Positions 1 to 42,928 of a stretch of 64,000 bases of DNA are shown here, one piece after another. Both the position numbers and the translations under genes were made by a program. The DNA lies in contig PBMR01000015.1 in NCBI GenBank assembly GCA_002722735.1, positions 33,673-97,672 on the forward strand, given 5' to 3'. The notes beneath the pieces were generated by a model. The model was not told where the DNA came from and did no database searches. It was given only the letters and a program-made list of their open reading frames with translations. The DNA is from Methanobacteriota archaeon (GTDB lineage Archaea > Thermoplasmatota > Poseidoniia > Poseidoniales > Thalassarchaeaceae). The number at the start of each line of letters is the position of its first letter. The stretch's first letter is position 1.

Positions 1-975
1 CGAAGTCGTAGTAGACGGATCCTATGGACTTCTTGCCGTTGATGTCGATGCCGTTGCAGTTGACATTTGCAGTGGAGTTGGTGACGCTACCCGCAGAGGT
101 CCTAAGACTGATACCGAAATCGCCACTGGTGATTTCGGCATTGTCGATTTCCACGAATGACTTCTCGGCCCAGATCGCGGCGCGGCCGCGGTCCCGATTC
201 CCGCATCCGTTGTCAGTGCTAGAGAGTGTGATATCACTGAGGGTGAAGGGGGTGATGGAGGACCCCGAGGAGTAAATCTGTAGGGCTGGGCCTACGATGC
301 TTCTGCTATCATCGCTGCCCACGACGAAGGTGCCGCCGACAAAGGTGGGTTGAGCGAGGTCCGTAGTTAGGACGCTACTGGTATTGACATTCAAGAACTC
401 AAGGTTGGTCAGAGTAGGGCTCGCACCATCTAGAACGAGGGCTGCGTAACGAAACTCACTGACTGCTGTGATGTAGTATGGCATCCCCCAGGGACCGTCG
501 AAAGTGACGTACCTCATCCCCGTCTCAGATAGATCGATGCTGCTCCTCATTAGCACCCCCTCGTTGCATGATGGGTCGTCGATCCAGATTTCCTGATTGC
601 TCTCGGACATGCCATAGCACTCCCCATTGGCACTGGAGTTGAGAGGCGCTTCCCACCTGAGGGTGATTCTCATCGAATCGTCGGCATTGCTGCTGCTGCC
701 ACACGAGACCACCCCGGCGCATAGGCTGCCACGAACGTCAAGATGGGTCCCATTGGGAAAGGAAATCGTGGCTCCCGCGTTGATGATGAGTTTAGCACCC
801 GGTGCGATTGTCACATCTCCAGTCAGTGTGTGTGTTCCAGCCCAAGTCTCAGTGCCCGTGATGGTGCCAGAGGTGGTCTCGTTGGACGCACTAACCGGAT
901 AGGCTGGTAGCACTAATGACAGTAGGATGCTAGTCAAGAAGAGGGCAGCGAGAGAAATGGAGCCGGCCTTTCCAC
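1..975 (-). CDS. Secreted protein, N-terminal part (gene runs off the window start); signal peptide, possible beta-helix/adhesin-like repeats
   Basis: Reverse-complement translation from ATG at ~975 is open to position 1 (MARCGKAGSISLAALFLTSILLSLVLPAYPVSASNETTSG...). The N-terminus is hydrophobic and signal-peptide-like, followed by G/S/T/N-rich repeats. It is absent from the ORF track because it has no stop in the window. Confidence 0.5.
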
Positions 976-1041
976 AACGCGCCATGGCTCCGGGTTCCAT
1001 CGGGGCGATTTAACCGTAGGGTAATATCGAGCCCTGAAATC

Positions 1042-2277
1042 TCAAATAGAGTTGAACTCGAGTGCCACTTGATCGGACCATGCTTTCGCATCCAGGACAC
1101 CATAACCTATCTTCGGGTCATGAGAACTTTGTTGGGAAGGGGTTTTTTGAGCCGATTTGGCCAACGCGACCTTGACAAGTGCCATCTCGTCTAGGTCAAT
1201 TATTCCATTCTGCCCGGCGATAATCTGGCCGTGTTCCTCCAGTAATAGAGCTAGAGCACCAGTGACCAATACTGTGGAGTCGCTGGTTCCTGTAGAGTAC
1301 GCGTAAGGGGGGTCGCTACTGCTTGAAACGCAAGACCACAGAAGTACGCCGGGGGCTGAGATCTCAGGCTTCTGATTTGGAAACGTTCTGTTCTCGCCTG
1401 AGTGTGGGTCGACAGTAGCACCAATAGCGCTATCTTTCCAAGCAGCCCCGTTTCGACCATGTGCTCCAACCGCGATGACCCCCTCGATGCTTGCAGGTGT
1501 CGAGACGTCATAGCCATCAGTGAATGAGTTCATGTTCCCCGCAGCGGCTATGACGAAGATGCCATCTTCCAAGGCCTCAGCCACAGCCTCAACGGTTTCT
1601 GATTCCACCCCCATCCCCGAACCCGGCTCACTGCCTAGGCTTAGAGAGATGATGTCAGCGTGCTGAGTGATACGGCACCAACGTATTGCCTGGGACACCA
1701 TTCGCTCGTCGGACGACTTTCCCGTAGGCCCCAGAGCGATTGCTATTGAGAGGGAGACCTCAGGGGCGGCACCAATATAGGTGCCGTTGGCAACAAGAAG
1801 GCCGGCCATTAGCGTACCGTGTCCCTCATTCCCGATGTCCCTGACATTATCATGCTCGTCGCCGTAGAAGTCCCTGAAACCCGCTAGGTGGATATTGGAG
1901 AAGTCAGGGTGTGAAATGTCGATTCCCGTATCCACGATGCACACGTTAACCCCGCTGCCGAATGTACCTGAACTCTGCAGTTCCCTGATTCCGGTATCCT
2001 CGTATGCCCATTCCGAGTCAGGCAGAACGAGTCCTAAGAAGGGCGCAATAAGGCTCCAAGTCAACAATAGGAATACAATTGTCAAGGAAAACATGATTGC
2101 CCCCCACGGCCAAAGCACCGTCATTATCGGGCCGGCGGGCCATCGCATCTCCCTAGCCTCCTCGTCGGAAATCCCATAGGCTTGGCCGGGGTAACCCGGG
2201 GCATCGCTATCGACTGTTGTAAGCAAGCTTGGCTCATCTGGTTCGGGCATCAGTTCGAGATGCCCGATCCCCGGCAT
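1042..2277 (-). CDS. Subtilisin-like serine protease (peptidase S8) with N-terminal membrane anchor
   Basis: S8 catalytic triad context: VCIVDTGID (Asp), HGTLMAG (His), GTSDSTVLVTGALALL (Ser). One TM helix near the N-terminus (WPWGAIMFSLTIVFLLLTWSLIAPFLGLVL). The track start at 2280 is GTG; an ATG follows immediately (MPGIG). Confidence 0.8.
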   Translation of the reverse strand: MPGIGHLELMPEPDEPSLLTTVDSDAPGYPGQAYGISDEEAREMRWPAGPIMTVLWPWGAIMFSLTIVFLLLTWSLIAPFLGLVLPDSEWAYEDTGIRELQSSGTFGSGVNVCIVDTGIDISHPDFSNIHLAGFRDFYGDEHDNVRDIGNEGHGTLMAGLLVANGTYIGAAPEVSLSIAIALGPTGKSSDERMVSQAIRWCRITQHADIISLSLGSEPGSGMGVESETVEAVAEALEDGIFVIAAAGNMNSFTDGYDVSTPASIEGVIAVGAHGRNGAAWKDSAIGATVDPHSGENRTFPNQKPEISAPGVLLWSCVSSSSDPPYAYSTGTSDSTVLVTGALALLLEEHGQIIAGQNGIIDLDEMALVKVALAKSAQKTPSQQSSHDPKIGYGVLDAKAWSDQVALEFNSI

Positions 2278-2322
2278 CACTGACCCTCATGATTCAGAGA
2301 GTCGGCCCCCCTATCACCCATT

Positions 2323-5300
2323 TCAGAAGGGGGCTCCCGGCCTTCTTCCTGTCCGGCGGGTCAGAGACCATAATGCCAATGCGAGCATGAGCAGTAGTAG
2401 ATAGGTAATCCACCCAAGCACTTCTTCCTCGGCCTCGGGCCAGAGTTGTGCCTCCATCACGCACACCAATACCTCGTCCACCTGCTCTGAACAAGACTCC
2501 AAATCATCCCCCTCATTGAATCCGGGGGGGACGATTTCGAAGATGATGAAGTACTTGTTAGTGGTGAAATTACTGAAGTCCATGGGGACGTAAAATAACG
2601 AGCTGCCCTGTTCTGGGACGTCGCTTACTACAGTCGAGTTCACCCCAGCAGTTGACTCGCACCTGATGTCGTTACACAGTCTTGCCCGCAGAGTGACGTC
2701 CTCTGCACTGACATGTGCCTCATTTACCACTTCCACCACATAAACTGGCTTCTGGCCCGCGATGGGGTTTCCACCACCTTGGAGCTGGATTGTGTTTCCA
2801 CGAATCGAGATGGCGGGCGAGTCCCTGAGGAGAGTGATGTGGTAGTCATAGGAATTGTTGTCGCTATCCCTCACAGTGAACTCGATCGTGTACTCCGGGA
2901 GGGGCCCCTCTTCCCCCTCGACTGCGTATGAGAGGGACATAGTCGTAATTCCCTCCGAGAATGGGGAGATTGGTTGCATCGTTGGCATTCCCACGTTCCA
3001 GTGCTCCGTTGATTGGTAGTCGAAAGTCAGGAGGTCGTCGCTGTTCCCCAGATTTTGGTACGGAATCTCCACGTTCAGGAGTTTTTCCCCGGAACTGAAG
3101 TAGACTGTGTCTACGTAGTCCTCGGTTACATCGAATCCCGAGAGCTTGGGGACCACCACCGACAGGCTGTGGTCGATGGAATAGCCTTCGGCAGTCGAGA
3201 GCTTGATCAGGATAGTGTGACCGAGTTGGAAATGGTGGGCTTGGCTCTTGTTGGCTGGACTGACTCTGACAACAAAGTTGTCTATCGTCTCAGTGTTATC
3301 GAGGCCCATCTCGAACGAGGCAGTGCTGTTCCATCCTCCGGAGGCATTCTCGAACTGGACAAGCCAGAGACCGCCGTCCGTCCCAAGGACTGTACCCGCA
3401 ACGTCGTATGTGTCGTATGGATTGTGTCCGGAGTAATTGATGTGCAAGATGAATTCTACAGGCAGGTATTCGCAGTCGGGCTCGGCTTCGCAGTCGGGGT
3501 CTAGCTCCAATGTGACAGCGCTTTCCCCGATGGCCGAGATTTCGATGTCCTGATTAGAGGCCCGTTCCAAGCTAAGTGTCTTTAGAGGGCTGTCCTGGCC
3601 GGCCCTCATTGTAACGCCTTGACCGCCAGAGTATGACATGTTCCTACTCCGTTGTTCAATCTCAAAGTCACTCGATGCATCGATTCGCCCAGTGGGCAGT
3701 AGCATCTCGAGGATTCCGTCCCCGTCCAATTCCTCGGACCATTCCACCCCCATTCCGACCGATATCACAAGATCGTAGTCATCAATCTCCAAAAGGGAGT
3801 GCGATTCCCCCTCATAGTCCAACCACTCTGTATCGAGGAAGAGTTTGCCGCCAATCGAGAGGTCTGAATCTACCGAACCCCCATCGGTATCGGCATCAAG
3901 CAAATCTACTGCGACTAGGTAGAGGCCCTCCTCGGGCGAGTCCACAGTGGCGTAGACAATCCATCGTCCGGGTTCCACCGAGGCAACCCACTCACCCGTC
4001 CACCCATCTACTTCGTTGCCAACCTTTTCCGGAACGACCCTTTCCCTGGAAATCCCATGCGTAGGAATCAGCACGATATCCCAGTCATCGTCAAATATCC
4101 ATTCATTGGAAATGTACGAGATGGTCCCGGAAACCTCGACGGATCCTGCGGTAATTTCGATATTCTCGATCTGGCCGATAGCACCTAGGGTGACGAAAAC
4201 TGATTCATTGGCAAAACCCGGCTTTTCCACGGAGATGTTCCACGAACTGCCGGCCGGGAGGTAGATTGCCCAATTGCCGCCATCATCAGTGGTCAACGAA
4301 TGGCTGGTGTTATCGATGGAAGAAATGTTCACTGAGACGTTGGCCAGGCCCTCTCCGAATCCCGGGAGCTCGTCATCATCGAGGTCCCAGTAGACCTTTC
4401 CGCTCATCTCGACGAGTCTTCGTACTGTCAGGTTGACAATATGTTCGACACCGACAGAGACCCCTGATTCGATTAAGGAAGAGTTGTCGATAACCCATCT
4501 CGCTCCCTGATTGTCAGACTGGTTCAATTCTACGTTCCACATCCCGGGGGTCGGTCTGATCTTGATGGTCTCCAAGAAGCCAGAGGTATCCTCAGTGAAG
4601 GAACCCAATCCCTCCTGAGAAGTGAACTTGAGTTCCATCTGGTTGAGACTGGTACCAGAATAATCCTCAAAGAGGACTATCGAAACTTCGGCCAACTCAG
4701 AGGTCTGGAAAAATAATCTGCTCCCGGCGCTGACTTGGGACACGCTAATGAGACGCCGAAGTCCTTCGAAAACATCTGAGCTAGTCTCAAACTCTTTCAC
4801 GATAACGATCCAGTCCCCTTCGAGCAGGTATTCCACTACCCTTCCTTCCTCGTCCGTGAGGAAGGTTTGGATCCAACCGTTGTCGCTATCGACGAACATG
4901 ACCTCGTGATTGGTTAGGAGACTACCGCTCTCGTTGCTGAAGGAGATGTTTACGAGCCATAGGGGCTCGAATCCCACAGACCTCTCAACAGTCGATGAGT
5001 CCATGCCCACTTGGAAAACGTCGTTGAGGTCGTAGAGAGTATCAAAGGGCTCATCGGCTGAGGCATTGGCCCTCTCCACGACAATCCTGTACCTACCTGG
5101 TTCCAGAGATACCTCGGCCCTTCCGGTGGAAACCCATTCGTCGCCATCGACAGTGACTTCGTAACCGGCGCCATTGGCCTCTAACGAATAGACAGAAAAC
5201 GGATATGTCACCGCGGTGCCGTTGGAGGCATTGTTGTCCCTCTCGTGGTCGATAAAGAAGTCGATAATGACCGTGCTGTTACCCTCTGGGTAGACGAGGA

Positions 5301-8300
5301 GTTCTAGATCCCACACGGAAGATGAGTTGATCTCCCTGGCTTCTGTGCTTGAGCCCATTTCTCCGGCATCAAGAACGAATGTCCAGTCCCCCAGAGGAAG
5401 AATCATCTCGAAGTAGCCGTTGGAATCAACCTCCTCCCTCCAAATTCCGTTTGTGACGCCGTCAGTATTGGTGGCGACGACATGGACGCTTTCCCAGCCC
5501 TTGATTGAGTCGCCGTAGTGGTTCCCGAGTCGGTTCAGGCTCACAGTGCCGGTTGCCATGGCACTCGAAACAACGCTCAGCGAAACAACATCCATCCCCT
5601 GTTCCACTGTGAATCGTGTTCCGTTGGATAAGAATCCGTCCATGCCCATGAGGACTTCGACAGTGGCGTACACCACCGCATCCACAGGGAGTATCACACT
5701 GAAGTTGCCGTCTTCGTCAGATGTGGTCGTGAGAGTGAACCCCCCCCATTGGAAAACTACCTCCGCGAGGCCTACGACTTGGGCTGGGATTTCATTTTCC
5801 TGCTTGACGTCTTGGGAGAAGCGCACTGTGCCGTTCACCGTTTGGCTGACTTGAAAGCTGAACGAGTCAGATACGTCCTCCTGGCCGATTTCTATGATTT
5901 GCCAGAGCTGCTTGTCTTCACCCAGAGTGTGGTTTAGTATCCAGGTTCCTTGGGAGAGCTCGGCCCTGTAGGATTCAATATCCGAGTCGTAGATAGCCAT
6001 GACCGGGGCAATAGACCCGTTTTCGGATCGCAGGCTGACCTCTAGGTCCGAGAGAGGGGAGTCCCCATCCAAGAGGGTGAAGTAGAGGTCGGACATTTCC
6101 GGAATGGGGGAGGGGAAAGTTGCCACGGCATCCTCCTCAGGAAGGAATTGGTAGGCCTCAGAAACCTCTGGGAAGCCGTCATCGTCGATGTCGACCTCGA
6201 CTAAGTAGTTACCCGGGATGATCGGTCCAATCTGGAAAGAGCCATCATCATCAGGGATGACCATGCAGGGAGGGGCTACTGTCTGGGAGGAGCACTCCGC
6301 AGTGGCATTCTCGGCCGTGTCGTTGCTTGGGAAGATGGAAATCTGGCTGAAAAGAGGCTCGCCAGATTGGTCGACCAAGCTCCCCTTTATGGCCCCTCCA
6401 GAGATAGAAAGATGCACTGGGGTCTGAAATGCATTCAACCCGATTAGGAAGCTACTCGCCAATCCCACTGCCGTGCCATCATCGAATTCGATAGAGACGT
6501 CGTACTCGCCCGGGAGGGAATCGGCGAAGTGGAAGGAGCCAGGTTGGACCATTGGACCACTGAAAATCCCGGTACCGGAGAACAAGCCTGTACCATTGAT
6601 AGTCCCATAGGCGGGCAGTGACTGCGTGGTGTCGGCCTCAAACTCACCAGATCCCACAAAAGTAGATTGGTCGAGGATTCTTGAGAACTGGCTAGTTTCG
6701 TCTGCGGTGAACCTGCCCGAGGCGTCTACAGTACCATTCACGAGGTAGTCGCCATTTTCGAGCAAACATGAGACAGCCCCATCAGGAATTTCATCGTCAG
6801 GGCAGGCAATGACCTCGATGTTTTCTAGATTCCCTGACAGCGTGCCCTTACCAGTAAACTGGCCCTCTCCGGTGATGCTGTGGTTGTTGAAGATAGTCTG
6901 GGTGTGTGTACCGGTAAAGTCGGTGACTGTCACAACGCCCTGTGAGACAACAGTGCCCTCACCAGTGAGGATGACTTGACCAATGCCGTTGAACTCCAGT
7001 GACTCGCCCTCTACCGTGCCATTTGAGGTGAGTGTTGAATATGGCTCAATGGCAACCTCGTCGGAGGATGGGGTCAGCACCACATGCGAGCCCACGACCG
7101 GATCACCGTCAAAGTCGAGGCCACCGGACCACACCAAGACCCCGGATGCAGAGGAGGGCTGAACTGAGATTGGTGCTTGGATTCGGGATTGGCCATTACT
7201 ATGGCCATCAGACCCAGAGACATTGACTATGGTCTCGGAGAGCCAGGTCGAGCCCGAGACGTTGCCTAGGATCCCCGTAATCGGGTTGATGTTTCTCTGT
7301 TGGTTGTGCTCGGTGAACAGCTCATACATCGAGTCACCGAGGTTAGAAGCCGTGGAGGGAGTTATCGACAAGCGAGCAGCCTCGAGATCAGGCTCGCCAG
7401 AGAAGGCAGAGACCCTAATCTTCCCCGAAGGGACAGTGAAGGAATACTCTCCGTTTTCGTTGGCTTGGGTATGGCCAATCGGAATCCAAAACGTACGCTC
7501 GTCTCCGTCGATCACGCTACCGTTCTCATCCGGTTCCTCTTCACCGCTGAATGCATCCCTCTCTATCAGGATCCTAGCATTTGGGACTGGTCCGATTCCT
7601 TCCAACTCGACCGTGCCCTCGACAGTAGCGCCACTGTAGTACTTGAGTACCTTTACAACCCTGTTCGAGTCATAAATTGTGCCGCATAACTGGCTGATCT
7701 TGGCACCAGTCTCATTGAGCTCACACTCGCTGTCGTCGTACCAGTTGGAGATGACGAAGTGATTCATCATCGCTCCGGGCAGGGCGAAAGCGTACTCCAA
7801 GGGAGAGCCCGGGGCACCCTTGATGTTCGTCTGCTGAGGGTTGAGCCAGACGGCTGGAGTCTCGGCATCTCCGGGAAGCCCCAAAGTCGAGGACCCGTAT
7901 CCAACGTAGACCCTAGCGACCATGGTCTCGAAGAACTCCGGTTGGTGCTGGTAGTCGATGTCGGTCATCCTGATGACCTCGGAGGGGTCTGAGGATACCC
8001 CAGAGGCCTGATCAATCAGGTCCCTTTGGTACGCTTCCTCGTATTGAGCCTGGGTCATCTCATCGGCTCCGGTCGGGTCATCACCCCTCTGGGTCTGGTA
8101 CATGGTGGAGATGTAGGTCCGCAAATCCAGTCCCGAGAGGTGCGTTGGCGCATGGAAGATGCCTGTCGTCTGCCCGCGATGGTATGATTGGTCCTCGTAG
8201 TAAGAGCCACCAAGGGGAAAGAGTCTGTTGTCGACGGCGAAGTAGCGAATCTCGTTATTTCGGGTCACTGTGCTTCCCAGTGGGGAGTCGTAGTCAGATA

Positions 8301-11300
8301 CCTCGTACTCGATTGAGGTGATGCCATGGTAGATGTCGACTAGGGTCCCCATATCGAAGGCGGTGATGAGGAAGGCGCGCATCATCCCCAGCCTTGCATT
8401 GTTTCTGTTCAGCGCAGTGGAAATGTCGTAGTATTCCTCTATCAGGTCCTTGGTGTACCTGTAACCACCAATGTCGTAGTGCACTGGCTCACCGATTTCC
8501 ACCGTGGCTGATGAGGCGCGGGTCACGTTGAACAGGGTCATGGCTTCGGATTGGCTGGAAGTGGGCTCGGAGACTTGGACGCCATCTTCGACAACCATCC
8601 AGACCTTTTCTAGTTGGGGAAGGCCATCGCTCCCAAGCCGCTCGCCGTACAGGAGTTCGACGTCATCGTACACTGCTACGACACCCATGGATCTGTTGAG
8701 GACGAAATCCCTGTTGCTGTTGGAGAGTATGCTCTCGAACTCCCCGACCTGCCCCAGGGTCATGTGCTCGCTTAGGGAAGCGATGAAATCATCGCCAAGT
8801 TGTCCGGAGTTCGACTTCTTATCGCCCTGAGCCAAGGTGGCGATGAACATGGACAGGGTGTCTTCTTGTCCGGCTGACAATAGCATCCCCCCACTGTTCG
8901 GGATTCCCGACTGGAAGTTGTCAGCAACGGTGGGATGTTGGCCCGAGGCCAGGGCCTGGAATCCGTAGTCCCACCAAGAGACAAAAGCAGGACGCTCGCT
9001 GAAACCTTGATCCGAGTCCTGCTCAGACAGCCAGTCGTAGGCGTGATTCCAGCCCTGGCTGTTAAAGCTGGGGCCGAACGTGCCCATGTACCAGAGGCCA
9101 GAGGCATCGGGATTGTACTCCTTGCCGTTCATTACGGAGAAAATATTGAAGAAGTCCTCCCTCAGTATGTCCGGAGCGATGTCGTAGATTGCCAAGTCGA
9201 CATCATAGGCCGATTCCTCCCCTCTTGGGATGCCTGAGTCAATCCCATAGGTGGAGTGCTGAGAGGTGACTAGCAGTAGGACAATCAGAATCGCCGGGAT
9301 GCCAGGACGAGCCTTCGTCGCAGGCCACAGTGATCTGAACCGGGCCCTAGGCGTCCCAATGCCTGACCTCCGCCATTCTTTGACGAATTCTGAGGAATTG
9401 GCACTGCCCCAGAGCATGGCGATACCGATTCCGCCCACCACCGCCATAGCAGGGGTTGCGTTGATGATGAATCTACCAGCGGTCCATGCCATGTATGTCG
9501 CGATGATTACCCAAAGCCCCAATAGCGTCATCTCGGACTTGTTCCGGCGACTCCCCCTCCATAGGAGGACAAAGCCACACCCAATTGCTATCAGAGCAAC
9601 CACGGGGCCATATGAGGCGAATAGCACCCCTCGACTGGGCGCCTGTGCCTCGCCAATGGTCCCGAAGATCTTGTTCTTTGAGAAGTAGAATCCCCCTGTG
9701 AAAAGTATGTCCCACCCACTGTATATCTCGAAGGTTTGGAGCAGGTAAAGAGCGGCTAGAATCGAACCGAACAGAGTCGTTCCGGTGATGATTACGAGAA
9801 GCCATGGCTTGTCCCTGAATGAGCTGGCCACCCAACCCAATGCAAATGTGAAGCCGATGATGTAGAACATCGGCTGCATGCCGCTGGGCGCGAAGACCAG
9901 GTTCAGGCCGGGCCAGCCGTAGAACGGCAGAGGTAGGAGGATTGCTGTCATCATCATCTGCAGCGCGGCAGCAGTGAACTGGAGGCTGTCCCTGCCACGG
10001 AAGATGTTGAAGGCAACCTGAACGGAATATGCAAGGAATAGGATTCCGGGACCGTAGACGAATCCCTTCCAGCCCAGCGCCATCAGGGTGAAGGCAATCC
10101 CGGACATCGTGGCGTTTGCCATAACCTTGGGGTTCTGCTTCCAGCTCTCCCTCATTCCGGCAAGCAGGTAGAGTGGGTTCCGACTGGTAGATTCGAATAT
10201 CCTCTTGTGCTCGAGTCCTGAAAGCGCCCTGATCCAGAAGTAGATTGCCGTTGCTAGGAAAAGCATGGCAAATGAGTCGTGGTCGGCCATGGCGAATGTC
10301 GACCTGCTAATGTGACCAGGCATCAGTGCGATCAGCCACGCAGACAGGATGCCGGCAGTTCTGCTGTGGACCTTGGTGGCAATTCCAGCGATGGGGATTA
10401 CGATTAGGGCCCCGTAGATTGCTGGAAGGGCGGAGACGCTCCACCAGACAGCCTCCTCTGCGGGAATCTCAAGTAGCCAGGAGAGGCCTAGGCCCCCTAG
10501 AGCGAGGGACCACGAGAACAGTGGCGGTCGAGGGTTCACGCCCCCTAGGGGGTACGCCCTATCGTGATCGAAGATGAGGTGGCTTCTCTCGGCAATCACA
10601 TAGTCGACGACCCTCTTCATGTACCATGGGTCAGACCCCCCAGTCATGTCCCAAAGACCCGTTCCAGAAGCGTTCATCGCCGGGATTACGTTCCATGCGG
10701 CCCTTACTACCAGCGCAGTTACCAAAGCTAGGCTGACCATAATCCCGTAGGAATTGGTCTTCCACCAGATTCTGAAGCCGCTTGGCTCCCTTTGAGGGGA
10801 GGTGTCCCCGAATACCCCTCGAGATGCAGCCATAATTCCGAATAGGTTCAGCCAGAAGCCGAGGAAGAACCACGAGAACGAGCCAATCATCCCCCCTTCG
10901 TCAAGAGGGGAGGGGAACTCGTTGCCGATCTCGTGAAGATGGCCCAACGTGTACAGTACCCAATTGATCGCTAGCAACGCACCGAGGACGTGCCAGCCCT
11001 CGGCCCGGAAGAAAGAGTGCAATAGGAGGGCAAATGTCGTGAACATCGCCCAAACGACCCCGAGATGACTGGACTCGGAGAAAGCCCCCAAGTCCTCGAT
11101 CTGCCCCATCCACACTAGGGGGATCAAATGGGCTACAAAGATGAGGGCAGCGTAGGATGGCGTCTCTAGGCTCCGTGCGGGCGTAGGGAGCACAGACATC
11201 ATCGAGCCGGAGCCCACTTCCTCCAATGTGCCCCTCAGAGCAATCATGACAGTAATTCCAAGTGCAACCGATGCAAACCAGAACGCAAAGAAGGCGGAGC

Positions 11301-11805
11301 CGATTGCCTGCCTCTCGATATCTACCAACTGGGATGTCACAGCATCGTCGATAATCCCCAATCCTGCAGCGTAAGACGTGGCGAGGTGCAGTCCCACAAT
11401 CGCGGATAGGAAGATGCTTGACTCCTCAAACTGCTTGGACTCAACCAAGAATCCAGTCACCGAACCTACTAGGAAGAATGTGGCGATGAACAAGTTGTCG
11501 AATGTAGAAGGGTCGAGAAAGTTCGCCGCGAATGAGATTGCCAACAGTCCGAATGACAGGGCCGAAACGCGGAGTCCTGAGCTGGAGCTGAGTCGCAGCC
11601 AAGGGGACATCCTTCCGATGCATGCTGAGGCTAGGGCTGCAAAGGGGAGGGTCAGGGAACTGGAAAGGTAGTCATTGTCAATTGTCCGTCCCTCGATTTG
11701 CGAGAGTGCTAGGAAGAGGATGGTCAGCATCGCGGTGATGGCGATTGGCGATGTGAGCTGGGGGGGTCGAGGGCTGTCTTGGGATGCTTCGTTATCGGTT
11801 TCCAT
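2323..11805 (-). CDS. aglB: Giant (about 3160 aa) archaeal oligosaccharyltransferase AglB/STT3 fused to an extra N-terminal polytopic membrane domain and a ~1700-aa C-terminal beta-sandwich repeat region with C-terminal TM anchor
   Basis: Uninterrupted 9.5-kb ORF. STT3 hallmarks are in order: TM1 followed by SDPWYMKRVVDYV...FDHDRAYP (EL1 DPxY/DxD region), a TIGE motif (TIxE-like, EL5), and AFVSWWDYGFQALASGQHPTVADNFQ (the WWDYG catalytic motif plus DNFQ). About 13 TM helices precede the WWDYG domain, and about 8 additional TM helices lie N-terminal to the STT3 core. The C-terminal 1700 aa is T/S/D/G-rich with repeated carboxypeptidase-regulatory-like segments (DEDGNFS..., GEYSFTVPSGKIRV) and many N-x-S/T sequons. 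It ends in a TM helix plus RRTGRRPGAPF. Confidence 0.7.
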   Translation of the reverse strand: METDNEASQDSPRPPQLTSPIAITAMLTILFLALSQIEGRTIDNDYLSSSLTLPFAALASACIGRMSPWLRLSSSSGLRVSALSFGLLAISFAANFLDPSTFDNLFIATFFLVGSVTGFLVESKQFEESSIFLSAIVGLHLATSYAAGLGIIDDAVTSQLVDIERQAIGSAFFAFWFASVALGITVMIALRGTLEEVGSGSMMSVLPTPARSLETPSYAALIFVAHLIPLVWMGQIEDLGAFSESSHLGVVWAMFTTFALLLHSFFRAEGWHVLGALLAINWVLYTLGHLHEIGNEFPSPLDEGGMIGSFSWFFLGFWLNLFGIMAASRGVFGDTSPQREPSGFRIWWKTNSYGIMVSLALVTALVVRAAWNVIPAMNASGTGLWDMTGGSDPWYMKRVVDYVIAERSHLIFDHDRAYPLGGVNPRPPLFSWSLALGGLGLSWLLEIPAEEAVWWSVSALPAIYGALIVIPIAGIATKVHSRTAGILSAWLIALMPGHISRSTFAMADHDSFAMLFLATAIYFWIRALSGLEHKRIFESTSRNPLYLLAGMRESWKQNPKVMANATMSGIAFTLMALGWKGFVYGPGILFLAYSVQVAFNIFRGRDSLQFTAAALQMMMTAILLPLPFYGWPGLNLVFAPSGMQPMFYIIGFTFALGWVASSFRDKPWLLVIITGTTLFGSILAALYLLQTFEIYSGWDILFTGGFYFSKNKIFGTIGEAQAPSRGVLFASYGPVVALIAIGCGFVLLWRGSRRNKSEMTLLGLWVIIATYMAWTAGRFIINATPAMAVVGGIGIAMLWGSANSSEFVKEWRRSGIGTPRARFRSLWPATKARPGIPAILIVLLLVTSQHSTYGIDSGIPRGEESAYDVDLAIYDIAPDILREDFFNIFSVMNGKEYNPDASGLWYMGTFGPSFNSQGWNHAYDWLSEQDSDQGFSERPAFVSWWDYGFQALASGQHPTVADNFQSGIPNSGGMLLSAGQEDTLSMFIATLAQGDKKSNSGQLGDDFIASLSEHMTLGQVGEFESILSNSNRDFVLNRSMGVVAVYDDVELLYGERLGSDGLPQLEKVWMVVEDGVQVSEPTSSQSEAMTLFNVTRASSATVEIGEPVHYDIGGYRYTKDLIEEYYDISTALNRNNARLGMMRAFLITAFDMGTLVDIYHGITSIEYEVSDYDSPLGSTVTRNNEIRYFAVDNRLFPLGGSYYEDQSYHRGQTTGIFHAPTHLSGLDLRTYISTMYQTQRGDDPTGADEMTQAQYEEAYQRDLIDQASGVSSDPSEVIRMTDIDYQHQPEFFETMVARVYVGYGSSTLGLPGDAETPAVWLNPQQTNIKGAPGSPLEYAFALPGAMMNHFVISNWYDDSECELNETGAKISQLCGTIYDSNRVVKVLKYYSGATVEGTVELEGIGPVPNARILIERDAFSGEEEPDENGSVIDGDERTFWIPIGHTQANENGEYSFTVPSGKIRVSAFSGEPDLEAARLSITPSTASNLGDSMYELFTEHNQQRNINPITGILGNVSGSTWLSETIVNVSGSDGHSNGQSRIQAPISVQPSSASGVLVWSGGLDFDGDPVVGSHVVLTPSSDEVAIEPYSTLTSNGTVEGESLEFNGIGQVILTGEGTVVSQGVVTVTDFTGTHTQTIFNNHSITGEGQFTGKGTLSGNLENIEVIACPDDEIPDGAVSCLLENGDYLVNGTVDASGRFTADETSQFSRILDQSTFVGSGEFEADTTQSLPAYGTINGTGLFSGTGIFSGPMVQPGSFHFADSLPGEYDVSIEFDDGTAVGLASSFLIGLNAFQTPVHLSISGGAIKGSLVDQSGEPLFSQISIFPSNDTAENATAECSSQTVAPPCMVIPDDDGSFQIGPIIPGNYLVEVDIDDDGFPEVSEAYQFLPEEDAVATFPSPIPEMSDLYFTLLDGDSPLSDLEVSLRSENGSIAPVMAIYDSDIESYRAELSQGTWILNHTLGEDKQLWQIIEIGQEDVSDSFSFQVSQTVNGTVRFSQDVKQENEIPAQVVGLAEVVFQWGGFTLTTTSDEDGNFSVILPVDAVVYATVEVLMGMDGFLSNGTRFTVEQGMDVVSLSVVSSAMATGTVSLNRLGNHYGDSIKGWESVHVVATNTDGVTNGIWREEVDSNGYFEMILPLGDWTFVLDAGEMGSSTEAREINSSSVWDLELLVYPEGNSTVIIDFFIDHERDNNASNGTAVTYPFSVYSLEANGAGYEVTVDGDEWVSTGRAEVSLEPGRYRIVVERANASADEPFDTLYDLNDVFQVGMDSSTVERSVGFEPLWLVNISFSNESGSLLTNHEVMFVDSDNGWIQTFLTDEEGRVVEYLLEGDWIVIVKEFETSSDVFEGLRRLISVSQVSAGSRLFFQTSELAEVSIVLFEDYSGTSLNQMELKFTSQEGLGSFTEDTSGFLETIKIRPTPGMWNVELNQSDNQGARWVIDNSSLIESGVSVGVEHIVNLTVRRLVEMSGKVYWDLDDDELPGFGEGLANVSVNISSIDNTSHSLTTDDGGNWAIYLPAGSSWNISVEKPGFANESVFVTLGAIGQIENIEITAGSVEVSGTISYISNEWIFDDDWDIVLIPTHGISRERVVPEKVGNEVDGWTGEWVASVEPGRWIVYATVDSPEEGLYLVAVDLLDADTDGGSVDSDLSIGGKLFLDTEWLDYEGESHSLLEIDDYDLVISVGMGVEWSEELDGDGILEMLLPTGRIDASSDFEIEQRSRNMSYSGGQGVTMRAGQDSPLKTLSLERASNQDIEISAIGESAVTLELDPDCEAEPDCEYLPVEFILHINYSGHNPYDTYDVAGTVLGTDGGLWLVQFENASGGWNSTASFEMGLDNTETIDNFVVRVSPANKSQAHHFQLGHTILIKLSTAEGYSIDHSLSVVVPKLSGFDVTEDYVDTVYFSSGEKLLNVEIPYQNLGNSDDLLTFDYQSTEHWNVGMPTMQPISPFSEGITTMSLSYAVEGEEGPLPEYTIEFTVRDSDNNSYDYHITLLRDSPAISIRGNTIQLQGGGNPIAGQKPVYVVEVVNEAHVSAEDVTLRARLCNDIRCESTAGVNSTVVSDVPEQGSSLFYVPMDFSNFTTNKYFIIFEIVPPGFNEGDDLESCSEQVDEVLVCVMEAQLWPEAEEEVLGWITYLLLLMLALALWSLTRRTGRRPGAPF

Positions 11806-11916
11806 CACACCCACCAGACCACGTAGCCAAAGGCTCAGCAGCGCGGCGACCTGAACGCTTGTTTTAACCGTTCGTAGAACGGTTGCGGCAATGAGGGGGC
11901 AGAATGGGTTCGCCCA

Positions 11917-13191
11917 TCATCTCGAAAGGGCACGGAATCCGATATCCGAGCGGTAGTGTGAGCCTTCGAGTTCGATGCTGCCGATGATCTGGTAGGATGA
12001 TTCGACTGCCTCCCCAAGAGTGGGGGCGATGCCAGTCGCGGAGAGGACCCTTCCACCGCTGGAATGGAGGTTGCCGTCTTCTCCGATAACTGCACCGGCG
12101 AGATGGGTGAACGCCCTAACCTGTCCCTCCTCGATGCATGCATCCCACCCAGATACCGGTCGGTCAGTGGCAGGGGTTCCGGGATAGCCCTCGGACGCGA
12201 GGACGACGGTGGCGGCATTGAGGTCGTGGAATTCAACCTCTGCACGAGCCAGAGATCCCTCTGCAGCAGCGAGTAGGGTCAGACCGAGATCGGAGGCGAT
12301 GAGCGGGATTGTGACCTGGGCCTCTGGATCCCCCAGCCTGACATTGAACTCCACCACACTGGGGGACCCATCGCGATCGATCATGAGCCCGACGTAGAGG
12401 CATCCCCGATATGGCGTGTCACCATTCCCAAGATGATGGTGCATTGGCTCGACGATCTCCTCAGTGACCCTTCTCATCACGGCCGGTGTCGCAACGGGCG
12501 CGGGAGCATAGGCACCCATTCCACCAGTATTCGGCCCCCTGTCACCATCATCCACGCGTTTGTGGTCCTGGCTGGCTGGGAGGAGGACGTAGCCTGACTC
12601 GTCCATCACGACAAGGACAGATGCCTCTTCCCCAGAGAGATGCTGTTCCAATAGGGCGAAGCCATCGGACTCCACTGCCTCACACAAAGCCTCCTCGGCA
12701 TCCTCTCTCTTGGACGTCACAGTCACCCCCTTGCCTCCGGCTAGAACGTCTCGCTTCACCACCCATGGAGGCTTGAACGAATCTAGCGAGGATTGGACAT
12801 CACCCTCGTCGTAGACCACGATGAAATCGCCGGTTGGTATGCCCAAGGACTTCATGACCCTCTTGGCGTGGAGCTTCGACCCCTCCAACTTGGCACCCTC
12901 AGAGTGGGGGCCGAAGCATGGGATTTCCTTGGCCCTGAGTCGATCCGCGAGTCCTTCGACGAGAGGGGACTCGGGCCCTACAACGACCAGGGCTACGTCG
13001 AGATCGACCGCGAGGCTCACCAGTCCATCGATGTCAGTGGAACTAATCCCGTGATTCAATCCGACCATGGACGTGCCGGCATTTCCTGGAGAAGCGTGAA
13101 CGGTGGACACGGACTCGCTTTGGGAGAGACCGATGGCCAGCGCGTGCTCACGCCCACCGCCGCCGACGATCAGTACGTCCATGCCAGCCAT
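11917..13191 (-). CDS. purD: Phosphoribosylamine--glycine ligase (GAR synthetase)
   Basis: MAGMDVLIVGGGGREHALA N-terminus and ATP-grasp motifs throughout; about 425 aa from the internal ATG. The track start lies further upstream. Confidence 0.85.
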   Translation of the reverse strand: MAGMDVLIVGGGGREHALAIGLSQSESVSTVHASPGNAGTSMVGLNHGISSTDIDGLVSLAVDLDVALVVVGPESPLVEGLADRLRAKEIPCFGPHSEGAKLEGSKLHAKRVMKSLGIPTGDFIVVYDEGDVQSSLDSFKPPWVVKRDVLAGGKGVTVTSKREDAEEALCEAVESDGFALLEQHLSGEEASVLVVMDESGYVLLPASQDHKRVDDGDRGPNTGGMGAYAPAPVATPAVMRRVTEEIVEPMHHHLGNGDTPYRGCLYVGLMIDRDGSPSVVEFNVRLGDPEAQVTIPLIASDLGLTLLAAAEGSLARAEVEFHDLNAATVVLASEGYPGTPATDRPVSGWDACIEEGQVRAFTHLAGAVIGEDGNLHSSGGRVLSATGIAPTLGEAVESSYQIIGSIELEGSHYRSDIGFRALSR

Positions 13192-13246
13192 GCAGTTGCG
13201 CTTGTGCTTGACACGATAGATTATCCCCTGGTCCGATATCATTTGC

Positions 13247-13900
13247 TCAGTACGGGACGGACTTCAGGCCGAGGCGGTATCCGAGGAGGTTGAATGACCT
13301 GTGGATGATCGGAGTGATTAGCAGCAGTATTGCCATTCCCATCATCAGATCCGAACTGCCAACAATAGACGGGTCCAGCAGTAACTGACCAAACAGGAAG
13401 GCGGAAACCGCGAATGGGAGGGTGTCGAGCAATGGTGCCTCAGAACTCTCATCGCCTTCCCTCTTGTGTCCGAGGCGACGCTTGACGAAGGAGCCTGCAG
13501 AGTCACCGGCCATGCAACCAAAACCCAATACGCATCCAAGCACGAAGACGGCCCCCCACTCCCCGCCAATCCAGAACCAGGCATCTGAAGAAACACCTGT
13601 CAATGGATCGATGAAAGGGGCATCTGAGTCCTCACTGCCCGGAGAAAGAGCGTGAGTTAGCATGCCGAGCAGCCCACCACCGAGGGTTCCTCCGGCTAGG
13701 CCGTTCCATGTCTTCCCATCTCCCAGAAGCCTGTTTCCATCACTGAGCACCCGACCCCCGTCAATGGGATTTGCGGCAATACCGGTCATTTCCGGAATCC
13801 ACTTGCCGCCAAGCATCGCAGTGGTATTTGAGAGGTATCCGGGAAGATAGAGCCACAGTACTAGCAAGGGTGCGATGAGGGGGCTGTACTCAGATGCCAT
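13247..13900 (-). CDS. CdsA-superfamily CTP-transferase membrane protein (CDP-archaeol synthase CarS-like or dolichol kinase-like)
   Basis: Polytopic membrane protein with a C-terminal GDSAGSFVKRRLG motif characteristic of the CdsA/CarS/dolichol-kinase CTP-transferase fold. Start moved to the internal ATG (MASEYSPLIAPLL). Confidence 0.5.
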   Translation of the reverse strand: MASEYSPLIAPLLVLWLYLPGYLSNTTAMLGGKWIPEMTGIAANPIDGGRVLSDGNRLLGDGKTWNGLAGGTLGGGLLGMLTHALSPGSEDSDAPFIDPLTGVSSDAWFWIGGEWGAVFVLGCVLGFGCMAGDSAGSFVKRRLGHKREGDESSEAPLLDTLPFAVSAFLFGQLLLDPSIVGSSDLMMGMAILLLITPIIHRSFNLLGYRLGLKSVPY

Positions 13901-14013
13901 CGGGTTGAGCACACCGCTTGGGCGGTTGAACTTTCGCACATCACGAATTGAGGGATATTGCATTGTTTCGCAGACATGCCGCCGTGATGTTCATTTCCCC
14001 CTCGGCCAGCCGA

Positions 14014-15756
14014 ATGACAATGAACGGCAGAAGAACCTTGGTGGTTTGCATGGTACTAATATCGGCTGGGATGGTTCTGCCACCGGGAGCATTGGCCGAG
14101 AGCGGGGAGGACATCATTATCGAATCTGACATGACTTGGGAACAGGACATGACCCTGTCACAGAATGTCAGGGTCATCAACGGTGGATCCCTGACATTCT
14201 CGAACGTCCAAGTAACACTAGAGAATGGAGTGGACATCTTCGTTGACCCAACGTCTTCGATAACGATTGATAACTCAGGATTGGTGGCTGCAGAGCCACC
14301 TAGTGGACTAGTTGGCTATGGCTACTGTGATGAGGGCAATCGTTCAGGCATCAAGGTAGAATGGCCGGACCCCGGACGGCGAATGGAAATTGTACTAACT
14401 ACGATTGAACCATCAAGCCTAGATGGGGTCACAGCATACTTTGGGGATGATTCTGAGTCCCTGAGTGGTGCAAATGACTCTATCGTTTTTGATTTGGGGA
14501 CGGAGGGCGAAATTTGGGTCGATTTGGTTGGGCCACTTTGCTACCCACCTTCTCTGAGTGATGTGAGGGTAAAAAGAGCGAATTCGGAGATTTCAGATTG
14601 TCAAGGTTGTCAATCGGGAAGCGCTGCCGACTTCGGACACAGAAACATGATGGTCCACGGCGATCCCGGGTTCACCATGACTATAGAAGGAGAAATGTGG
14701 TCTAATGGCTCAAGACTGGTTGGCGGGCAGATTGCCAATGCAGGTCGACTTTCGATCAACGATACTTCATTGGACAGGGTCGGCCCAGTCATTCTGACTA
14801 GCGACGATGCGGCGATAACCCTTTCAGGGACCACTCACTTCACCAATAGCACTGACGACCATGATGTCAGAACAAGGGCTTACAGCTCAATTGAATGGGG
14901 CGACAATGTGAGCGGATCCGGTGGTTTGACTGACAAGTGGGAGAGGCGGCTTGCAGGACAGCGTCTCAGTTTCGAAGCCATCTATGTCGCCTACGAAATC
15001 ACGGGCATGCACAACACCCCATCATACAGTAACTTCAGCAACTTGGACGGGGTTTCCTTCGTCAAGGGAGGAGGCGAGAGGGTCGTCGAGATCGCATGGT
15101 CCGATGACAACACATGGGAGGATGGGGCCATTTGGACCGAACAGGCGGTTGTGACCATCACTGACTACAGAACAGCGTGGAATCCCGATGGATCAGGGAT
15201 TGGGGACTACGGAGGAGGTCAATTCCCTCTTGGATGGCAGTCAGATGTCGTAGTCGACCAAGAAACGCCGAACGTAGGGTGGGTGTCCATCACCACAGTG
15301 GGAGATGACGGAAATTCGACCGATACGGCAGTATTGGGGGACTCTGTCGCAGTCGAGGCGGTGATTGCAAACTCTGGCACCGCAGCAGCCATCCTTGCCA
15401 TAGATTGCAATGTCACCAGTACTGGAATCGCTGCGGAGATGTCCCCAACCTGGCCCAATGCGATGATTGGGGCTGGGGGCGAAGAGATCATCCACTTCAC
15501 TTGGAGGAATTCCGTTATCGGCGAGGACAGTCTGACTTGCCGTGCCCTGACCCCTACGCAACTGGTTGACGATCTGGCCTATGGCGGCGGCGAGATGTCT
15601 AGCGGTGCCATCACTTGGGGAGAAGCCGAGGAAGAGGAGAATCTGCCTCACACCCTACCAATCATGCTGGCACTGGTCGTTGGAATCGCGATTGCGGGAT
15701 ACGTGGCCGTCAATAGGATGAACGAGGTCGATGAAGAAGGCCGTTCGCAGGAGTAA
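14014..15756 (+). CDS. Secreted/surface protein with signal peptide and C-terminal TM anchor (hypothetical)
   Basis: MTMNGRRTLVVCMVLISAGMVLPPGALA is signal-peptide-like. The protein is rich in N-x-S/T sequons. The C-terminus has a TM helix (LPIMLALVVGIAIAGYVAV) followed by a short acidic tail. The track start at 13948 is TTG. Confidence 0.5.
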   Translation: MTMNGRRTLVVCMVLISAGMVLPPGALAESGEDIIIESDMTWEQDMTLSQNVRVINGGSLTFSNVQVTLENGVDIFVDPTSSITIDNSGLVAAEPPSGLVGYGYCDEGNRSGIKVEWPDPGRRMEIVLTTIEPSSLDGVTAYFGDDSESLSGANDSIVFDLGTEGEIWVDLVGPLCYPPSLSDVRVKRANSEISDCQGCQSGSAADFGHRNMMVHGDPGFTMTIEGEMWSNGSRLVGGQIANAGRLSINDTSLDRVGPVILTSDDAAITLSGTTHFTNSTDDHDVRTRAYSSIEWGDNVSGSGGLTDKWERRLAGQRLSFEAIYVAYEITGMHNTPSYSNFSNLDGVSFVKGGGERVVEIAWSDDNTWEDGAIWTEQAVVTITDYRTAWNPDGSGIGDYGGGQFPLGWQSDVVVDQETPNVGWVSITTVGDDGNSTDTAVLGDSVAVEAVIANSGTAAAILAIDCNVTSTGIAAEMSPTWPNAMIGAGGEEIIHFTWRNSVIGEDSLTCRALTPTQLVDDLAYGGGEMSSGAITWGEAEEEENLPHTLPIMLALVVGIAIAGYVAVNRMNEVDEEGRSQE

Positions 15757-18559
<2,803 letters not shown>

Positions 18560-18742
18560 CCGAGCACCACGGCCCTTGCAGGGACCCATGTGCCTTGAAT
18601 CGCTCTGTGAGGGATGATATCTGGAGGTTCTAGGTAGGTGCACGTTCTATCGTATTGCAATTGCATTTCAAATGCAATACAATTAAGTGTCTCTGCCCAA
18701 CTCGAGGCTCAGGAGGAGTTCGAAGTGGCCGGCGTCAGTCCC

Positions 18743-19096
18743 ATGGTCTCGCTAAGGATTCCAGAGGATCACCTGATGGAACTGGACAGGCTCGTGGGAT
18801 TCGACGGGATGAGGAATAGATCGGATGTCATCAGGGAGGCTGTTCGCAGGCTTCTGGCATCTCCGCTGCCCGGACAGGGGGGCAGGGTCGAGGTCGATCT
18901 TGGTCCTGATTTGACCATCAGACTCAGCGACTACTGCAATCTCGTTGGTGAGTCAGCAGATGTCGTGCTCCGGCAGTCCGCTCGTGAGTACATTCGCAAG
19001 GAGTTGACCCAAGGGGCAACGGTAGAGGAACTCCTCACGAGACGCAAGGATGAGTTGCGTTCTCGATTTGATGACGATTCGAATGCTCTGAGGTGA
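18743..19096 (+). CDS. Ribbon-helix-helix (CopG/NikR-like) DNA-binding protein
   Basis: MVSLRIPEDHLMELDRLVGFDGMRNRSDVIREAVRRLL is a classic RHH beta-strand/helix pattern. It is divergent from the HD hydrolase gene. Confidence 0.55.
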   Translation: MVSLRIPEDHLMELDRLVGFDGMRNRSDVIREAVRRLLASPLPGQGGRVEVDLGPDLTIRLSDYCNLVGESADVVLRQSAREYIRKELTQGATVEELLTRRKDELRSRFDDDSNALR

Positions 19097-19132
19097 GAGA
19101 TTGAGCGAGGATGGGATGCACACAAACAACAC

Positions 19133-19157
19133 GGGGGGGCGGCAAAACCGCCCCCCC
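19133..19157 (+). terminator. Perfect 10-bp GC hairpin (GGGGGGGCGG-caaaa-CCGCCCCCCC) about 37 nt downstream of the RHH gene stop
   Basis: Seen directly in the sequence. A T5 run follows about 27 nt downstream. Function as a terminator versus part of a structured RNA is uncertain. Confidence 0.3.
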
Positions 19158-19210
19158 AACCACAAATCAATCCAATGCAGAGGTTTTTCCAATGGGCTTA
19201 GGAACATCAG

Positions 19211-19226
19211 GAGCCGTGCACGGCTC
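19211..19226. promoter_or_regulatory. Perfect 16-nt palindrome GAGCCGTGCACGGCTC in the intergenic region about 130 nt upstream of the 19353 gene
   Basis: Seen directly; a candidate operator for a dimeric regulator such as the adjacent RHH protein. Confidence 0.25.
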
Positions 19227-19352
19227 TCTAATGCAGCTGGATATGGCGCAAGTCAAGCACCGAGGGTGCTACGAAAACAAGAGCGAAACTGAGCGCACTC
19301 AACACACACCGTCCCGCACGAGAGTGCGGGGCACACCCTCCGGTCCTCTGAA

Positions 19353-24368: not shown

Positions 24369-24863
24369 ATGCATCGCTCCATGGTACGGTGGTCGAGAGT
24401 CGAGGTCGAGGTAGATGTCGACGATGAGGAAGGGGGTGTCAGCATGGATTCTCCCGGAACAGGGTTGGATGCGGACGCTCAGCAGATGCATGAGTTATTC
24501 CTTGGGGGACTGCCACACCTCTCCGAAGTTCAAGACCGTCATGCAGAGATCCTGGACGGAGTTTCCAACGCGGTAGACGGGACGAAGACATTCGTTAGGG
24601 CCGCGGTTCCGATGGGGGACTTCCTAGCAGAGTTAGGAGGGGCGTGGTCAGGCTCAGAGGCAGTAGTCCCCCTTCCCTCTTCCCTCCCAGGGGGAGTGGT
24701 CATTGAGACACTCATGGAAGAGGGGGTGCAAGTGGCACGCCTCATCTCGCCAGAGAGATTCGGCGGGATGCTCAGGACCTTCAGACTCCCCTTGGGCAAG
24801 ACCATTGCAGGAGCGACCTGGGAAGATGGTGTCCTGACCATCAGGATGAGTCAGCCTCGCTAA
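24369..24863 (+). CDS. Small heat-shock protein (Hsp20/alpha-crystallin family)
   Basis: C-terminal ATWEDGVLTIRM matches the conserved A-x-x-x-nGVLtv motif of the alpha-crystallin domain. Start moved to the internal ATG after the XPD stop; the track ORF start overlaps xpd. Confidence 0.65.
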   Translation: MHRSMVRWSRVEVEVDVDDEEGGVSMDSPGTGLDADAQQMHELFLGGLPHLSEVQDRHAEILDGVSNAVDGTKTFVRAAVPMGDFLAELGGAWSGSEAVVPLPSSLPGGVVIETLMEEGVQVARLISPERFGGMLRTFRLPLGKTIAGATWEDGVLTIRMSQPR

Positions 24864-38184: not shown

Positions 38185-38375
38185 GCAGCGCGGATGAACG
38201 ACTTGCATTTTACCGATTGCACGGCTCGCTTGGCATCTGATTAGCATGATAACGATTAATGTTGAGTCTCCATCCGGCAATCCTGATGGACAGGCGACTG
38301 TCGACCATTGACCCCAGGGATACCCTACCTGGTGGCTGTGGCGGAGTATCCAGAGGGAGTCCACGGGAGCGCCGT

Positions 38376-39353: not shown

Positions 39354-39373
39354 GTGTATGGGGTATTCATAGC

Positions 39374-40606: not shown

Positions 40607-40608
40607 AT

Positions 40609-42920: not shown

Positions 42921-42928
42921 GGTCCGCT

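Follow-up and report, generated by a model that had tools for sequence, protein, structure and literature searches.

In our study, a stretch of 64,000 nucleotides from a Thalassarchaeaceae archaeon (contig PBMR01000015.1 of assembly GCA_002722735.1, forward-strand positions 33,673 to 97,672; hereafter the window) has been analysed, and the giant protein encoded near its beginning is found to be the AglB (STT3-family) oligosaccharyltransferase (OST) of this Marine Group II archaeon. The enzyme is fused to a 10-helix membrane domain, to ~1,600 extracellular residues and to a second, C-terminal membrane anchor. We read the protein as an active AglB which is permanently fused to a doubly anchored, N-glycosylated extension serving as a scaffold of the surface coat, and this reading is given roughly even odds (probability about 0.5). 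Marine Group II, which is uncultured, counts among the most abundant archaeal groups of the surface ocean. The OST recognised here has a mass of ~340 kDa, of which the enzyme makes up one third; the remainder is nevertheless conserved across the order.

The gene is a single open reading frame (ORF) without interruption at window positions 2323-11814 of the minus strand (the strand had been left unstated in the original prediction, which was made from the sequence alone). It has 3,163 codons from a GTG at 11814, whereas the annotated ATG at 11805 gives the unbroken 9.5-kb frame of 3,160 residues that had been predicted; the stop codon lies at 2323-2325. Residues are counted here from the GTG start, and numbering from the ATG is 3 lower (E130, R194 and E272 become E127, R191 and E269). 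The translation is 100% identical to protein P0001. Among 5.8 billion proteins searched, 459 homologues were found, from ENA, JGI, NCBI, Tara and Logan assemblies and from fosmids, and the best 120 of these 459 are nearly all of 3,120-3,340 amino acids (aa), with 100% query cover and 46-89% identity. One cluster member is present on 28 contigs, and versions from fosmids, with 3,141 and 2,944 aa, have been on deposit since 2014. An alignment of 31 sequences was found to be collinear end to end with few gaps. Per 100-residue block, the identity to the query is highest in the core (67-85%), against 35-51% for the N-terminal domain and 36-67% for the extension. The remoter members (32-39% identity) still align over their full length, through to the invariant last Phe.

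It had been cautioned that a mis-assembly or a missed frameshift may have joined two or three genes, and in favour of this there is one locus, L011 (GCA_038142585.1, an 887-kb contig, positions 10001-19576), where the ortholog appears as three separate ORF calls (408, 804 and 1,999 aa). The first change of frame in L011 comes from a run of six G reduced to five, inside the catalytic GGSDPWY motif, and the adjoining S8 and HD genes are likewise split; because a G is lost from a homopolymer within a catalytic motif and the neighbouring genes are also broken, the split is ascribed to a sequencing (indel) error. It is the sole split seen, no natural gene fission having been found among hundreds of homologues, and more than 100 other, independent assemblies as well as Sanger-era fosmids give one collinear ORF of the same length. 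The artefact is hence rejected, its probability being negligible, and the giant AglB is encoded as one real gene. Error-prone assemblies can fragment such genes, as in L011, and domain-level surveys may miscount them.

The enzymatic part of the protein is made up of a transmembrane (TM) core with the 13-TM GT-C fold (residues 346-860, window 9235-10779, minus strand) and of an external catalytic domain (residues 861-1520, window 7255-9234, minus strand), which is enlarged in comparison to solved AglBs. The catalytic hallmarks were predicted to stand in the canonical order, and each of them could be placed by coordinate: GSDPWY at residues 393-398 in external loop 1 (EL1; D395), DHD at 416-418, a second DHD at 511-513 in EL2, TIGE at 719-722 in EL5 (the TIxE-like motif), WWDYG at 947-951 (nt 8962-8976) and DNFQ at 965-968. 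The proposed check with the Pfam STT3 model (PF02516) gave a match over residues 393-793 with 44 bits against a cut-off of 24.5, and this model is above the cut-off in 15/15 family members. TIGR04154 (archaeo_STT3) matches in part, with 159 bits against a curated cut-off of 450 (residues 360-981, model positions 4-571 of 831), which places the protein outside the archaeosortase A-associated AglB subfamily; its C-terminus also carries no PGF-CTERM-like signal.

According to both phmmer and a family profile (hmmsearch), the nearest solved structure is AglB-L of Archaeoglobus fulgidus (AfAglB), with eukaryotic STT3 next. In the alignment to AfAglB, D395 falls on the Asp of GGNDPWY, D511/D513 on D-H-H, and WWDYG...DNFQ on WWDYG...NPFQ. 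The class-defining motifs of OSTs have been listed as the DXD-type motifs of EL1 and EL2, TIXE/SVSE, WWDYG, DGGK or DNXTZNX[T/S], and DK/MI (PMC8342417); D965-N-F-Q, aligned with N-P-F-Q of AfAglB, is an exact match to neither the DGGK nor the DNXTZNX[T/S] consensus. Within the Poseidoniales family, D395, D416, D511/D513, T719-I-x-E722, R781 of the TM core, WWDYG and DNFQ are invariant. The same residues are kept in 74-83 of 83 remoter Thermoplasmata relatives (D395 in 82, the T and E of TIxE in all 83, WWDYG in all 83), except for the EL2 Asp pair D511/D513, which is less cleanly aligned and kept in 60 and 64 of them, respectively. Beyond the WWDYG stretch, residues 952-1520 gave no PDB sequence relative; residues 1001-1450 are common to the Thermoplasmata giants, matching in 76/85.

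The three dimensional structure was predicted using AlphaFold2 (AF2) in jobs cut at residue 1200, by which the external catalytic domain is divided between two models and poorly modelled. Model 1 (residues 1-1200; predicted local distance difference test score, pLDDT, 68; predicted template modelling score 0.62) has shown the 13-TM GT-C fold and an external globular domain, with low-confidence loops. The top Foldseek matches of this model are AfAglB, STT3A/B and PglB, all with probability 1.0 and with E values from 2.5e-8 (AfAglB) to 3e-3 (PglB). As judged from the alignments, the 13-TM core and the WWDYG domain retain all the residues known to bind metal, sequon and lipid phosphate, and for this reason the giant AglB most likely continues to glycosylate Asn-X-Ser/Thr sites of exported proteins, using dolichol-linked glycans, on the outer side of the membrane.

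Ahead of the core lies the extra membrane domain which had been predicted (residues 1-345, window 10780-11814, minus strand). Its presence is borne out, whereas the expected number of about 8 helices is replaced by ~10 TM helices in the AF2 model, where they lie at residues 21-331 with pLDDT mostly 75-94. Lysine and arginine residues number 7 in the putative inside loops versus 1 outside, which fits an N-in topology, and with an even number of helices the topology of the STT3 core would be left unchanged. The charged residues E130/E131, R194 and E272, in or near the helices, are invariant, and R168 and E295 occur in 90% or more of the family. The domain is missing from the Thermoplasmata homologues and is specific to Poseidoniales. 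Neither an internal duplication nor a relation to the STT3 core was detected using hhalign, no consistent Pfam match was obtained at E up to 10, no PDB relative was found, and BLAST gave no match to the ORFs flanking the Thermoplasmata AglB genes. A profile search of 5.8 billion proteins for a standalone homologue found only fragments of the same gene; its sensitivity was poor, as only 8,000 word-sharing candidates were scored and even the full-length family was not returned.

The extracellular extension (residues 1521-3128, ~1,600 aa, window 2431-7254, minus strand) follows the external catalytic domain. It was examined through AF2 model 2 (residues 1201-2400, pLDDT 78), Foldseek, Pfam, hhalign repeats, sequons and Cys pairs, and is found to contain ~15 beta-sandwich modules of the transthyretin/CarboxypepD_reg, CnaB/SpaA and CARDB/DUF11 types. 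From about residue 1520 the model is all-beta with pLDDT 85-94 and shows ~8 sandwich modules, and residues 2400-3128 would hold ~7 further ones, as judged by length. The proposed structure search of the extension, carried out with the model up to residue 2400, has returned chains of CnaB, transthyretin or Ig-like domains, with the TIE protein of B. anthracis, Gram-positive pilins, SdrD, an ice-binding RTX adhesin, the MG domains of alpha-2-macroglobulin and Sulfolobus SlaB among the Foldseek matches. CarboxypepD_reg matches residues 2487-2554 with 52 bits in Pfam, and over 15 family members it is above the cut-off in 14/15, the DUF11, CARDB, SpaA, SdrD_B and NOMO-type models appearing sporadically. 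The original prediction of ~1700 aa of beta-sandwich modules C-terminal to the WWDYG domain, ending in a TM anchor, is thus upheld for the modules and the anchor.

One unit of the extension, at residues ~1600-1760 (window 6535-7017, minus strand), is unlike the neighbouring sandwich modules. It is formed by antiparallel strands of 14-25 residues with Gly-rich GxGxF repeats, at pLDDT >90, and no specific fold match was identified for it. Tandem near-identical repeats were considered for the extension and rejected, as its modules are only weakly related in an hhalign self-comparison (probability 60-90%). A DxDxDG motif is located at residue 1875, and 12 of the 14 Cys residues of the protein are extracellular, forming six close pairs. 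The extension is conserved across the family, with 44-67% identity per 100-aa block and without domain shuffling, and is probably structural rather than variable.

No TM helix is found between the external WWDYG domain and residue 3132. Hydropathy and conservation then mark a C-terminal TM anchor at residues 3132-3150, followed by a basic cytoplasmic tail, LTRRTGRRPGAPF (anchor and tail together at window 2326-2430, minus strand). The tail (residues 3151-3163, window 2326-2364) has the consensus RRxGRRxxAPF, with an invariant final F, at the same position in all homologues. Its conservation exceeds the needs of a plain stop-transfer signal, and it may be a sorting or interaction motif. Together with the core, this second anchor at the very C-terminus ties the external part to the membrane at both ends.

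Sequons are enriched in the extension, with 36 found against 14.5 +/- 3.3 in shuffles (2.5-fold, z ~7). At 2.2 per 100 aa, however, the predicted "saturation" with N-x-S/T is an overstatement, and another surface ORF of the window is richer. Enrichment extends to each of the 31 homologues tested (z 1.8-10.8). Sequon positions kept in at least 70% of the sequences number 19 over the full protein, 15 of them in the extension. No such enrichment is seen in the cytoplasmic ORFs of the window (z ~0), while the second giant surface ORF (24860-33808, minus strand) shows more, with 82 sequons against 28 expected (z 11.5); hence the enrichment is taken as a mark of exported proteins generally, and it gives indirect evidence of glycan transfer to Asn-X-Ser/Thr. 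In this second ORF of 2,982 aa, a transglutaminase-like core is accompanied by a TSP3 repeat, a weak CarboxypepD_reg match and a C-terminal DUF4129, and its product is probably a large, heavily glycosylated surface protein.

The distribution of the architecture was explored with residues 1-1200 as the query, in an exhaustive HMMER search against 1.84 billion cluster representatives. The first tier consists of proteins of 3,146-3,230 aa with the N-terminal domain, down to 40% identity, which are from Poseidoniales wherever named; indeed, the giant homologues of 3,140-3,340 aa all belong to Candidatus Poseidoniales (Marine Group II), the window being from Thalassarchaeaceae. The second tier has more than 100 representatives of ~2,000-2,775 aa at 27-38% identity, in which the STT3 domain starts at residue ~10-100, and their owners are Thermoplasmata metagenome-assembled genomes (MAGs) and Caldiplasma sukawensis (WP_458329147). 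Most of the "short" matches are fragments of such second-tier proteins. A TM helix with a basic tail closes 82 of the 85 Thermoplasmata giants, and the second-tier extensions are rich in sequons (median z 5.6). While residues 1001-1450 are shared as described above, residues 1451-2300 are common to only 3 of the 85. AglBs of 2,050-2,120 aa are also encoded by the cultured Thermoplasma volcanium GSS1 (TVG1271204; 2,076 aa, in a complete 1.58-Mb genome record), by Thermoplasma spp., by Oxyplasma meridianum and by Cuniculiplasma.

The Thermoplasmatota enzymes (T. volcanium, Oxyplasma, Cuniculiplasma, Caldiplasma) resemble the giant AglB in the STT3 core, the enlarged external domain, the sequon-rich chain of CarboxypepD_reg type and the C-terminal TM helix with a basic tail. 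On the other hand, they share only 27-38% identity in the core, are ~1,000 aa shorter at ~2,050-2,770 aa, and are without both the 10-helix domain and residues ~1451-2300. AglBs of ~2,050-2,770 aa with core, extension and anchor are the norm across Thermoplasmatota, and the only parts specific to Poseidoniales are the N-terminal domain and ~850 aa of the extension. The proposed survey of related genomes for AglB homologues of more than 2000 aa has therefore found them to be plentiful in both Poseidoniales and Thermoplasmata, and the OST architecture, which had been called unusual, is so relative to the characterised enzymes but follows a plan that is normal in this phylum. The commonly quoted size range of AglB (~600-1,050 aa) fails to describe a whole phylum. 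The oversized AglBs are themselves not new to the databases, since their sequences are public and automatically annotated as STT3, e.g. in T. volcanium GSS1; the Poseidoniales form stands out by the orphan domain at its N-terminus and by having the longest extension. No published description or explanation of giant AglBs was found in a literature search that was incomplete, and an earlier mention may exist.

Among known systems, AglB-L of A. fulgidus (PDB 3WAJ/3WAK/5GMY/7E9S) is the best-characterised archaeal OST and the best match in both sequence and fold. It shares the 13-TM GT-C core, GG(N/S)DPWY in EL1, D-H-(H/D) in EL2, TIxE in EL5, and WWDYG followed by (N/D)(P/N)FQ. Whereas the giant AglB has large additions, AfAglB is of 868 aa, without the N-terminal extra domain or a second TM anchor and with only small peripheral beta units, and the identity is ~16%. 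Eukaryotic STT3 has the same catalytic fold and a WWDYG with Tyr at position 4; in comparison to the eukaryotic OST, the giant AglB is a single polypeptide, has TIxE and not SVSE, lacks the DNXTZNX[T/S] double-sequon motif and is not homologous to ribophorins, OST48 or Ost3/6. In the BOS complex of the endoplasmic reticulum (ER), the NOMO rod is similar in that transthyretin-like modules form a chain with a TM anchor at its end; this similarity is weak (the Pfam NOMO models match 1-2 members weakly, and PDB NOMO2 has E = 0.004) and speaks for a shared fold class rather than for family membership. Sulfolobus SlaB and the surface-layer (S-layer) glycoproteins of archaea are likewise C-terminally anchored, sequon-rich beta-sandwich chains, whereas the chain of the giant AglB is fused to an enzyme, anchored at both ends and shows no sign of a lattice.

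In the interpretation that we prefer, the extension would be a structural, N-glycosylated arch or mat, probably stabilised by Ca2+ and disulfides. It would form part of a non-crystalline coat of surface glycoproteins, would hold the glycosylation site within that coat and may itself be a substrate of its own enzyme. The roles first suggested for the extension, a self-glycosylated stalk or a tether to the envelope, are plausible. By cryo-electron tomography, an unordered, unidentified exterior protein layer of ~20 nm in thickness has been found on Cuniculiplasma and Oxyplasma, whose pili and archaella carry N-glycans (PMC12448462). A coat function is attractive because these S-layer-less genera, which encode the ~2,100-aa form of AglB, show both such an exterior layer and N-glycosylated filaments. 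Transcription of aglB in situ has been reported for a Thalassarchaeaceae MAG (PMC9723583), and nothing was found on AglB expression in Cuniculiplasma or Oxyplasma in one published supplement. As the same principle occurs in the cultured, S-layer-less Thermoplasmatales, the role of the anchored AglB extension and its place in the exterior layer become testable.

A number of points weigh against this interpretation. The link between the extension and the exterior layer consists only of their co-occurrence and a length estimate, and we know of no description of the Marine Group II cell envelope. The sequon enrichment, being common to other surface proteins, indicates exposure and not a special role in self-glycosylation. 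The giant AglB is the only OST recognised in the data examined, and a second, ordinary AglB elsewhere in the genomes is possible. Moreover, the catalytic loops have pLDDT <50 in the AF2 model (residues 381-432, 698-735 and 903-976), and the DK/MI motif of the Ser/Thr pocket could not be located by sequence.

The additions may instead support catalysis, as built-in counterparts of the accessory subunits of the eukaryotic OST, the beta chain holding the unfolded substrate or setting the distance to the translocon and the N-terminal domain handling the dolichol-linked donor (flipping, recycling or docking). This is consistent with the conserved, collinear extension and N-terminal domain, with the invariant charged residues in the N-terminal helices and with the weak matches to the beta-sandwich domains of NOMO; to our knowledge, no archaeal flippase for lipid-linked glycans has been identified. 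However, the N-terminal domain is without detectable similarity to transporter, flippase or OST subunit families, the NOMO matches are generic to the transthyretin-like fold, and the Thermoplasmata enzymes presumably function without the N-terminal domain, and we consider this explanation rather unlikely. A stronger version of the coat function can also be speculated, in which the OST itself would be a principal building block of the coat in the mostly S-layer-less Thermoplasmatota, its extension forming the ~20-nm layer and an equivalent in Marine Group II, with the N-terminal domain adding a lipid-donor function. By our own estimate, ~10-16 modules of ~4 nm anchored at both ends would rise ~20-30 nm; the proposal as a whole is nevertheless regarded as improbable.

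A further explanation is that the giant polypeptide is a precursor, which would be cleaved after export, for example by an S8 subtilase, into an AglB of ordinary size and a C-terminally anchored surface glycoprotein. It draws on the genomic neighbourhood, where the order purD, giant STT3, S8 peptidase, beta-helix protein (~1,400 aa) and AAA_16/TPR protein is kept in 6/6 Poseidoniales loci, down to ~32% identity, and recurs in the window with the beta-helix gene cut by the window edge; the subtilase also has an N-terminal TM helix and an external catalytic domain. On the other hand, the Thermoplasmata giants share the fused plan without an S8 neighbour, natural fission of the gene was not seen among the hundreds of homologues and no cleavage site is known, and only a low probability is assigned to such processing. 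That the protein is an adhesin, with the STT3 part mainly as a membrane anchor and the Ig-like chain binding particles, algae or polymers, is very unlikely: although Gram-positive pilins, SdrD and the ice-binding RTX adhesin are the closest structural matches of the extension, the catalytic residues do not vary, and the chain, anchored as it is at both ends, contains no recognisable lectin or carbohydrate-binding module and is far more conserved than typical adhesins.

The S8 subtilase gene (1042-2280, minus strand; ~405-414 aa) was assigned by Pfam and synteny and lies 42 nt downstream of the giant AglB. Its orthologues are located at 17595-18833 in locus L001, 17952-19196 in L003, 15510-16727 in L009 and 14408-15622 in L010, and their alignment has shown a conserved cytoplasmic head of ~55 aa, one N-terminal TM helix and the external catalytic domain. 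The subtilase is possibly a functional partner of the giant AglB, processing either AglB or other surface proteins. The 5' part of a secreted beta-helix protein follows (1-1000, minus strand); its open frame begins with a signal-peptide-like segment and contains several sequons. Orthologues of full length have 1,400-1,470 aa with Beta_helix and Big_7 domains, and the AAA_16/TPR protein lies next to them. In the Thermoplasmata AglB loci the S8 and beta-helix neighbours are absent, and an ORF of ~220-290 aa with two TM helices stands downstream instead. In 5/5 of these loci (L004-L008) this ORF, with 1-2 hydrophobic segments, abuts or overlaps the AglB stop codon, which suggests a conserved partner differing from that of Poseidoniales.

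Upstream, the gene of CDP-archaeol synthase (CarS), which identifies the source as archaeal, is located two genes from the giant AglB. Two further ORFs of the window, 13948-15756 (plus strand, 602 aa) and 33878-36814 (minus strand, 978 aa), match no Pfam family. The 602-aa ORF has a hydrophobic segment at its end and a mild sequon enrichment, and an unannotated ORF of 556-631 aa is present at the same spot near CarS/purD in L001, L003, L009 and L010. At 38259-44365 (plus strand), the gene for lipoyl synthase precedes a 2-oxoacid dehydrogenase operon that is complete (E1 alpha, E1 beta, E2 and E3); both belong to ordinary metabolism and are unrelated to the OST.

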